The notes beneath the pieces were generated by a model, which was given only the letters and a program-made list of their open reading frames with translations, had not been told where the DNA came from and searched no databases. From NCBI GenBank assembly GCA_021776735.1, contig JAJFFH010000008.1:4490-68489 (forward strand): a stretch of DNA of 64,000 nucleotides, given 5' to 3'. This document shows positions 16,248 to 17,653 of this stretch, in pieces. The stretch comes from Planctomycetota bacterium. Lineage in GTDB: Bacteria; Planctomycetota; PLA2. The position numbers and the translations under genes were made by a program. Within the stretch, counting starts at the first letter, position 1. Each line of letters starts with the position of its first letter.

Positions 16248-16535
16248 TCAACCACCTGAGATCGCTTGGTGGACGAGGATCTCGTCGCCGTCGGCCAGCT
16301 TGATCTTGGGGATCTCGTGGCGGTGCACGCTCTCGCCATTGACGATGCAGAGGATGTGCGGGCGAAGCTCGCCCGACGCGAGCGTGAGATGGTGGCGCAG
16401 TTGCGGCAACGCCTCGTAGGCCGCTTCGAAGGCTTCGGGCAGATTCCGCCCGCGCACTTCGATGCGGTCCCGTCCGACCGCGACCTTCAGGACCGCGGGC
16501 AATCGCAGCTCAACCCGGGGTGCGTCGTTCGTCAT
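16248..16535 (-). CDS. MoaD/ThiS-family ubiquitin-like sulfur-carrier protein
   Basis: 95 aa ending ...GDEILVHQAISGG (C-terminal Gly-Gly). 4-nt overlap (ATGA) with the upstream BNR-like gene. Confidence 0.8.
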   Translation of the reverse strand: MTNDAPRVELRLPAVLKVAVGRDRIEVRGRNLPEAFEAAYEALPQLRHHLTLASGELRPHILCIVNGESVHRHEIPKIKLADGDEILVHQAISGG

Positions 16536-17653
16536 TCGATGACCGCCGCCGCTACCGAGTAGACGGGCGGGAGGTAGTCGGCTGCCAACTGCCAGCTTGC
16601 GCCTTCATCCGCGCTTGCGAACACCTGGCCGCCCGCGGTGCCGAAGTAGACGCCGCACGGAGTGCTCGGGTCCGAAGCCATCGCCTGGCGCAGGACGCTG
16701 ACATAGGCATTCTTGCTGGGCAGACCCCTCGCGAGTTTTTTCCAGCGACCGCCCTTCCCCGACCGGTAGACCCGCAGCGCCCCGTTCGTTGCTCGAAACG
16801 CGTAGCCCTCCGGCTCGAGGGGGATCACGTAGCAGGTGTGCGGGTCGCGTGGGTGCACGGCCAGTCCGAAACCGAAATCGTAAGGCAGCCCGTCATCGAT
16901 GCGCTGCCAGGAATCGCCGTGATCGGCTGAACGGTACACGCCGACATGGTTTTGCTGGAAGAGGACACCCGGCGCCGCCGAATGCACGAGGAGCTTGTGT
17001 ACTCACGTACCGACGTCCGACTCCTGCGGCGCACCGACATAGTCCGCGACACACGAGTTGATCGGGGTCCACTTCTGGCCGCCATCGTCGGTCCGAAACG
17101 CTCCCGCCGCGGAAATCGCGACGTACATCCGGTTTGCATCGTGCGGATCGACCTGGATGCTGTGCAGGCACTGGCCCCCCGCACCCGGACTCCAATCCTT
17201 GCGCGTCCGGTGGCGATTCAACCCTTCGACCGGCTCCCACGAACGGCCCCGATCCTCGCTGCGAAACAGGCCGGCGGGTGCCGTGCCCGCGTACAGCACG
17301 CTCTTTTGCCGCGCCGGACCGGGCGCGATGATCCACACCCGGTTCGTCGCATCGAGCCCGTACTCCTTGGCGAACTTGGCGGCCTTCGGGTTGAGCTTCG
17401 GAAACGCGGGCGGCTGCTTCGCCGGCTTGAAACGCTGCGTCGCGAGATCGGCGGACAGCGTCGTGCACCCGAACGTGAAATTCGACGCCGCCGCATGCAG
17501 GCGCGGCGCACCCCGCGTATCCACGACGGCGTGCGGAACCGACCACCCCTTGAGCAGCGGTCCGGTGATCTTCCAACGCTTGCGCCCGCCTCCGGATTCC
17601 AGCAGAAACAGCCCACGCTTCGTGCCTACACTGAGAATCGTTCGTTTCGCCAT
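16532..17653 (-). CDS. BNR/sialidase-like beta-propeller protein with an in-frame TGA (17003-17005), candidate selenoprotein
   Basis: ORFs 17003..17653 and 16532..16987 are in the same frame and separated only by TGA plus 5 sense codons. The joined product is collinear: ...[37 protein letters not shown]...DVGT-TGA-VHKLLVHSAAPGVLFQQNHVGVYRSADHGDSW... The TGA sits where the preceding blade has Cys. Confidence 0.7.

Follow-up and report, generated by a model that had tools for sequence, protein, structure and literature searches.

Bacterial selenoproteins are made when SelB, an elongation factor dedicated to selenocysteine (Sec) and carrying Sec-tRNA, binds an mRNA hairpin and supplies Sec at a UGA codon, and in genes of which Escherichia coli fdhF is the prototype this bacterial Sec insertion sequence (bSECIS) lies within the open reading frame (ORF). 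A 2026 review lists 119 prokaryotic selenoprotein families and subfamilies (PMC13188914, Table 1), most of them with a UxxC or CxxU motif in a thioredoxin-fold or other redox protein. Here we describe a gene in a 64,000-nucleotide (nt) stretch of contig JAJFFH010000008.1 from a Planctomycetota bacterium (hereafter, the window) that encodes a seven-bladed Asp-box (BNR) beta-propeller, is broken by a single in-frame UGA, and overlaps a gene for a small ThiS/MoaD-like protein. Like the fdhF-type genes, it combines a UGA at a Cys column, a bSECIS hairpin, and alternation of Sec and Cys among relatives. Unlike most catalogued selenoproteins, it would carry Sec in a U-V-H-K context without a conserved partner Cys. 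We propose that one 373-residue propeller is made from the whole frame, with UGA 217 decoded as Sec by the standard bacterial route, and we hold it to be very likely that this codon encodes Sec at an invariant Cys position of the propeller family. The explanation as a whole, in which recoding is the chief part and weaker functional inference is allowed for, seems to us probable.

The review does not name a BNR, sialidase-like, or propeller family among its 119 entries, and the propeller matched no selenoprotein model in NCBIfam release 20, its only match being NF045728 (BNR glycosylhydrolase) at 71 bits against a cut-off of 175. The original prediction, made from the sequence alone, that this is not a described selenoprotein family therefore agrees with both resources. 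A BNR, sialidase, or propeller selenoprotein was likewise not found in the text or supplements of deep-Sep, BSepDB, the GOS and Olavius selenoproteomes, or the planctomycete selenoprotein table. The literature yielded nothing on a propeller selenoprotein, on the structural homolog Reut_B4987, or on a ThiS-propeller neighborhood, and the text of surveys on beta-grasp and ThiS/MoaD gene neighborhoods does not mention a BNR or sialidase-type partner. Neither the propeller selenoprotein family nor its association with a sulfur carrier seems to have been described before, and the recoding mechanism is a standard one. The family would add a non-thioredoxin beta-propeller to the bacterial selenoproteome.

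Among propellers, the closest solved structure is PDB 3b7f, which is Reut_B4987 of Ralstonia eutropha, a seven-bladed Asp-box propeller without an assigned function (PMC2716378). GH74 xyloglucanases, GH33 sialidases, sortilin Vps10, and Ycf48 share the Asp-box repeats and the propeller fold (Foldseek E values of 1e-11 to 1e-7). GH74 enzymes consist of two tandem seven-bladed propellers (7+7), whereas the protein studied here is a single propeller of 373 amino acids (aa). It also differs from GH33 enzymes, as no match to Pfam BNR_2/sialidase was obtained at E values up to 0.1 and no RIP motif was found. We know of no invariant Cys/Sec accompanied by three invariant His in the GH74, GH33, sortilin, or Ycf48 families. 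With regard to the small neighbor, carriers of the ThiS/MoaD/CysO/SAMP systems work with a ThiF/MoeB E1 and an acceptor (ThiG, MoaE, or CysM), and in known systems sulfur carriers are activated and loaded by enzymes of the ThiF/MoeB-type E1 and rhodanese kinds. The pair described here resembles these systems in having a carrier of ~95 aa with a Gly-Gly end that is translationally coupled to its presumed partner, but the partner is an Asp-box propeller and the window holds no E1. MoeB and rhodanese proteins both have Sec-containing forms in the catalogue (PMC13188914), which provide a precedent for Sec among sulfur-carrier enzymes. However, their folds are unrelated to the propeller, and they load the carrier, whereas the propeller would act downstream of it.

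The in-frame UGA codon of the propeller gene

The propeller frame has a sole internal stop, the TGA at codon 217, and is itself terminated by another TGA (16534 to 16532). That the two ORFs called here form one frame interrupted only by TGA, and that the joined protein is collinear with BNR-type propellers, had been proposed from the letters of the stretch. Both proposals are borne out, the second by a match to PDB 3b7f over the full length (E value of 1e-75, 38% identity) and by Pfam matches above cut-off to BNR (29 bits, cut-off 27) and Sortilin-Vps10 (44.5 bits, cut-off 33). The alignment of the TGA with a Cys of the adjoining blade also proved correct: the blade with Cys162 reads GGQ-C162-LHSIQVDP, the next blade reads VGT-TGA-VHKLLVHS, and Cys162 is the blade-equivalent residue.

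A search of 5.8 billion proteins returned more than 6,600 homologs of the propeller protein. In a first alignment, Cys occupies the codon 217 column in 31/31 full-length homologs, and V218, H219, and K220 are invariant, which confirms the G-x-C-V-H-K context that the original prediction had put forward. A wider set comprised 77 full-length orthologs with a sense codon at the column (42 to 77% identity), extracted from genome and metagenome loci of Planctomycetota, Verrucomicrobiota, Chloroflexota, Acidobacteriota, Bacteroidota, Gemmatimonadota, Nitrospinota, and one archaeal bin. Every one of these 77 carries Cys at the column, within a C-[V/L]-H-x motif, so that the alignment of homologs suggested as a check finds the Cys conserved.

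Since 16 distinct orthologous genes from independent assemblies have TGA at codon 217, each with exactly one in-frame stop, and 58 protein clusters of 210 to 220 aa stop with the residues preceding that codon, the recurrence of TGA at one codon is far beyond chance. It could nonetheless be a plain stop, in which case the gene would be a nonsense pseudogene or would be split into polypeptides of 216 and ~151 residues. Gene callers and public annotation do stop at the TGA: 54 of the best 120 database proteins are exactly 216 aa long, and none of these 120 contains U. The aldo/keto-reductase-like gene upstream looks frameshifted, and the contig therefore holds damaged genes or assembly errors; furthermore, one relative of the propeller gene (L007) carries TAA at the codon plus a second in-frame stop. 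However, a plain stop does not account for TGA at an invariant-Cys codon in 16/16 genes that lack any other internal stop and whose real terminators are of all three kinds (TAG, TAA, and TGA). The 156 codons beyond the TGA align with homologs, and the median ratio of nonsynonymous to synonymous substitution rates (dN/dS) among TGA genes is 0.25 after the TGA versus 0.34 before it, values indicating that the downstream stretch is under purifying selection. A split gene is further disfavored because a start codon is not conserved, codon 218 being GTA, GTT, or GTC in 4/16 genes and codon 223 being very variable, and because the break would fall between propeller blades. Neither a split gene nor a pseudogene explains the conserved hairpin described below. 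We regard a plain stop as extremely unlikely; reading the codon as Sec would correct a systematic annotation error in which dozens of database entries are cut at 216 aa.

In a neighbor-joining tree, the forms with Sec and those with Cys are interspersed (for example, L015, with TGA, is sister to P0051, with Cys), which gives a clear answer to the earlier suggestion that orthologs be examined for Cys/Sec alternation. The ancestor of the ThiS-linked clade probably had Sec, with several later replacements by Cys. The Planctomycetota ortholog L007 (238 to 1359) retains the hairpin but reads TAA at the Sec codon, and its second in-frame stop falls at a conserved Tyr codon, 121. Recoding of UAA as Sec was considered for L007 and set aside owing to this second stop; a pseudogene or poor assembly is more likely.

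Our reading assigns Sec insertion at codon 217 to a hairpin inside the coding sequence (Table 1). The original prediction had pointed to the segment from 16960 to 17000 but had seen no convincing SECIS. The pointer was sound, as the hairpin lies in that segment, but the negative verdict does not stand once orthologs are compared. The hairpin spans codons 224 to 230, and its apical loop begins 26 nt after the UGA. In RNAfold, a 30-nt segment that includes the hairpin folds at -11.7 kcal/mol, and the value for the hairpin alone is -11.2 kcal/mol. The bSECIS model calls for a loop of 3 to 9 nt with G at one or both of its first two positions, a stem of 4 to 16 bp, a spacing of 16 to 37 nt, and an energy of -7.5 kcal/mol or lower (PMC13188914). 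The hairpin agrees with the model on all four points, and the loop taken together with the pair that closes it (C-GGC-G) conforms to the usual N1-G-[G/U]-N-N2 pattern. The same hairpin was recovered from 16/16 TGA genes (loop GGC, 6 to 9 bp, spacing 26 nt, -10.3 to -16.6 kcal/mol), whereas 0/53 Cys-codon orthologs reached -7.5 kcal/mol in the same scan.

The core CCCGGC-GGC-GCCGGG is common to the 16 TGA genes. Its 5' side reads UCGGC in the window, where the lone difference, Pro225Ser (CCG to UCG), turns a C-G pair into a U-G wobble. At codons 225 to 228 (CCG GCG GCG CCG), the third positions are identical in 64/64 cases among TGA genes, although CCG makes up 63% of the Pro codons and GCG 61% of the Ala codons elsewhere in these genes. 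In synonymous identity, the 7-codon window starting at codon 225 ranks 1st of 366. Cys forms have 38 different heptapeptides across the hairpin stretch.

Several observations count against Sec decoding. The folding energy of the hairpin is not significant by itself (z = -0.19 for 60 nt and -1.88 for 30 nt), and 12% of all TGA triplets in this GC-rich window precede a hairpin that passes -7.5 kcal/mol; for these two reasons, the case for a SECIS rests on the separation between Sec and Cys genes. Because the hairpin core is invariant, compensatory double changes are missing, and the only changes are from C-G pairs to U-G wobbles. Finally, domains of selA, selB, and selD were not found within the window, which also contains no tRNA according to ARAGORN (tRNA-Sec included) and no Rfam match at gathering thresholds. 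ARAGORN found no tRNA-Sec over all fetched loci either, and those loci likewise contained no Sec machinery.

The lack of Sec machinery in the window would also suit a UGA that is translated but not as Sec, either because the codon is reassigned to Trp or Gly or because near-cognate decoding reads through it and inserts, for example, Cys. Low-level insertion of Cys or Trp at Sec codons is known under selenium limitation. Nevertheless, UGA terminates many conserved genes of the window, the propeller gene among them, and is thus not reassigned. In addition, the aligned residue is always Cys and never Trp or Gly, a hairpin that fits the SECIS model follows TGA in every case and a Cys codon in none, and a member of a catalogued CxxU selenoprotein family is encoded in the same window. 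Given this evidence, we consider non-Sec translation very unlikely and continue to favor Sec at codon 217. The nearest relatives of the propeller are Planctomycetota bins, and complete sel gene sets have been documented in Planctomycetes (PMC4807772).

The catalogued family member is one of two further genes in the window that had been said to carry TGA at redox Cys positions, a claim that holds for both (Table 1). Their presence lends indirect support to a Sec machinery elsewhere in the genome. In the AhpD-like peroxidase-related gene, the TGA sits at the U of CxxU, and a folding energy of -31.5 kcal/mol is obtained for the 65 nt that begin with the TGA. Its domain, TIGR01926, is the one listed for the catalogued "AhpD-like, CxxU" selenoprotein family (PMC13188914). 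The product of the secreted thioredoxin-like gene has a signal-peptide-like N terminus and a long Lys/Ala-rich C-terminal tail and matched no NCBIfam model. A SECIS is not obvious in this gene, whose strongest hairpin begins directly after the UGA.

Table 1. Positions of the features discussed, counted from the first nucleotide of the window
Feature	Position	Strand	Detail or basis
Seven-bladed Asp-box (BNR) beta-propeller gene, 373 aa/codons	16532..17653	-	ATG at 17653, one internal TGA
UGA codon 217, putative Sec codon	17003..17005	-	Cys column in orthologs
Candidate bacterial SECIS-type hairpin, GCAUUCGGC-GGC-GCCGGGUGU	16965..16985	-	9-bp stem, GGC apical loop 16976..16974
Ribosome-binding-site-like motif GGGAGG	17663..17668	-	9 nt before ATG; direct sequence reading
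ThiS/MoaD/SAMP1-like beta-grasp protein gene, 95 aa	16248..16535	-	Ends ...AISGG; Pfam ThiS
AhpD-like peroxidase-related gene, C-Y-Y-TGA (CxxU)	22106..22684, TGA 22349..22351	+	TIGR01926, 157.5 bits (cut-off 81.8)
Secreted thioredoxin-like gene, TGA-P-P-C (U-P-P-C)	53989..54897, TGA 54160..54162	+	...HSHGFF-TGA-PPCW

Fold of the propeller and placement of residue 217

An AlphaFold model of the propeller built from a 32-sequence alignment has a predicted local distance difference test (pLDDT) score of 90.8 and a predicted template modeling (pTM) score of 0.90. Its best PDB match in a Foldseek search is again 3b7f, with a template modeling (TM) score of 0.89, and GH74 enzymes, dispase-autolysis-inducing protein, sortilin, and Ycf48 are far weaker structural matches. 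The sole low-confidence segment of the model is the loop spanning residues 205 to 214, just ahead of residue 217. In the model, Sec, taking the place of the family's invariant Cys, would stand at the end of a flexible loop. Residue 217 is three residues ahead of strand 220-223, while Cys162 is immediately ahead of strand 163-168. We take these two strands to be the innermost of neighboring blades on the basis of secondary-structure order and general propeller topology rather than coordinates. This placement would put residue 217 on the face where such propeller enzymes usually carry their active site. By the same topological reasoning, His164, His219, and His236 would share one face near the propeller axis. 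His164 is kept in 79/80 sequences, and His219, His236, Arg322, and Asp328 are each kept in 77/77.

A selenenylsulfide pair between Cys162 and Sec217 was considered as a family-wide mechanism. It was rejected because Cys162 is replaced by Ala or Ser in 12/58 Sec forms.

The conserved His residues suggest another role for residue 217, namely, that Sec/Cys217 is a ligand to a metal or metal-sulfide center at the hub together with His164, His219, and His236, with the ThiS-like protein supplying sulfide or maturing the center. One face is predicted to carry three invariant His together with an invariant Cys/Sec, and Sec is an established metal ligand in formate dehydrogenase and [NiFeSe] hydrogenase. 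The distant paralog 3b7f keeps the three His as well as the QQNH motif, Arg322, and Asp328, but has Asp in place of Cys/Sec (G-H-D-P-H-C versus G-T-U-V-H-K), and its function and partner are unreported. A swap of Cys for Asp between paralogs is, in our judgment, consistent with a metal ligand. On the other hand, no metal-handling gene is among the conserved neighbors of the propeller gene, and searches against Pfam and NCBIfam brought up no metal-binding family for the protein. We regard a His3-Cys/Sec metal site, with the carrier feeding or maturing it, as a serious alternative to a nucleophilic Sec, albeit a rather unlikely one.

The ThiS/MoaD-like neighbor and possible functions

The downstream gene had been described as a Gly-Gly-ended MoaD/ThiS-like carrier overlapping the propeller gene by 4 nt. 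Both parts of that description hold, as the ATG of the small gene overlaps the propeller stop codon in the sequence ATGA (16535 to 16532) and its product passes the cut-off for Pfam ThiS (PF02597, 27.2 bits versus 22.5). Matches to NCBIfam SAMP1 (E value of 3.5e-10) and to archaeal-type MoaD are both below cut-off. In a clustering of every ORF up to 5 kb away from the propeller gene at the fetched loci, the ThiS-like gene was the only neighbor conserved beyond lineage-level synteny, being on the same strand with an overlap that is usually 4 nt. It has the same orientation at 17 loci (one BLASTp cluster). In the close clade (at least 57% identity), it is present at every locus that extends far enough, in Sec and Cys types alike. 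An adjoining ThiS-like gene also occurs in the distant lineages Nitrospinota (L053), Chloroflexia (L075 and L078), and the archaeal bin (L084).

L075 is the only locus found with an activating enzyme next to the pair. It encodes, between 4373 and 7119, a ThiS-like protein (89 aa), a ThiF+rhodanese E1 (428 aa), and a propeller of the Cys form. In known systems, ThiF-rhodanese-type E1 enzymes yield carrier thiocarboxylates. At three Planctomycetia Sec-type loci (L013, ~7150 to 7540; L014, ~7130 to 7500; L015, 7258 to 7587), the carrier runs 6 to ~30 residues past Gly-Gly and would therefore need proteolytic trimming before use.

We can offer a tentative account of how the two proteins might act together. 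The propeller would work with the co-translated carrier, whose Gly-Gly tail would be activated elsewhere to a thiocarboxylate by a ThiF-rhodanese-type E1. The tail would then enter the propeller funnel, where Sec217 (Cys in most relatives) might be the nucleophile that takes or passes on sulfur. Such a sulfur-carrier-dependent nucleophile is a possibility to which we give well under even weight. Thiocarboxylate or persulfide chemistry, at which the original prediction had hinted, is our working hypothesis, and the order of genes in L075 (ThiS-like, ThiF+rhodanese, propeller) lends it one support.

Four points speak against this functional account: 3b7f, the closest solved structure, has Asp at the column and no known function; most orthologs at 42 to 49% identity are without an adjoining ThiS-like gene; the family lacks a conserved resolving Cys, with Cys162 being present in only 46/58 Sec forms; and no E1, JAMM, or rhodanese genes lie near the pair in the window. 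Still more speculative, and in our estimation unlikely, is the idea that the pair constitutes an unrecognized sulfur-carrier-dependent enzyme in which a thiocarboxylated tail is threaded into the propeller and a Sec/Cys amid three His, possibly with a metal, carries out a novel chalcogen transfer. If this were true, Sec would reveal which residue is catalytic in a family whose uncharacterized members number in the thousands. Regardless of the precise chemistry, Sec at codon 217 points to a likely catalytic residue in proteins annotated as [quoted passage not shown] which have more than 6,600 matches in many phyla, and the coupling to a ThiS/MoaD-like gene provides a testable handle on propeller function.

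The small protein might instead be a ubiquitin-like modifier, with Sec/Cys217 forming an E2-like (seleno)thioester or with the propeller serving as target or receptor. Its best NCBIfam match, the below-cut-off hit to SAMP1, is to a ubiquitin-like modifier, and the extension past Gly-Gly in L013 to L015 is in keeping with such a role, as carriers extended in this way need proteolytic processing, like ubiquitin-like precursors. Furthermore, the structural relatives sortilin and Ycf48 have been solved with bound peptides. However, genes for E2, E3, or JAMM proteins are not conserved nearby, and the sole locus with an adjoining E1 has a ThiF-rhodanese fusion of the kind that makes thiocarboxylates in known systems. 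We consider an E2-like or ubiquitin-like role improbable and less likely than either a nucleophilic or a metal-bound Sec/Cys217.

ThiS matches near the propeller gene in two additional loci (L032 and L047) were dropped as coincidental, since they lie among genes that by eye look like thiamine biosynthesis genes (ThiE- and ThiG-like). Plasmid and chromid records of distant homologs (36 to 40% identity) have no shared context and no ThiS gene. A scan for promoters and terminators yielded nothing useful.

Other genes of the window

Upstream of the propeller gene, the aldo/keto-reductase-like gene with a twin-arginine translocation (TAT)-type signal (17865 to 18604, minus strand) is spread over two frames, 18604 to 18107 and 18470 to 17865, and represents a frameshifted pseudogene unless the assembly is in error. 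Just upstream of this remnant, at 18601 to 19453 (minus strand), genes for a nucleotidyltransferase and a HepT-like ribonuclease stand side by side and resemble a toxin-antitoxin pair. The window also encodes two large Ser/Thr protein kinases, both of them fusions with FGE-sulfatase (sulfatase-modifying-factor-like) domains (25839 to 28262, plus strand, and 42854 to 46132, minus strand). The minus strand also encodes a leucine-rich-repeat protein (33660 to 35975) and a TIR-domain protein (36209 to 37858). The window ends (63302 to 64000, minus strand) within the gene for a radical-SAM molybdenum-cofactor enzyme of the MoaA type, of which it includes the C-terminal part; as this gene lies 46 kb from the ThiS-like gene, no link between the two is implied.

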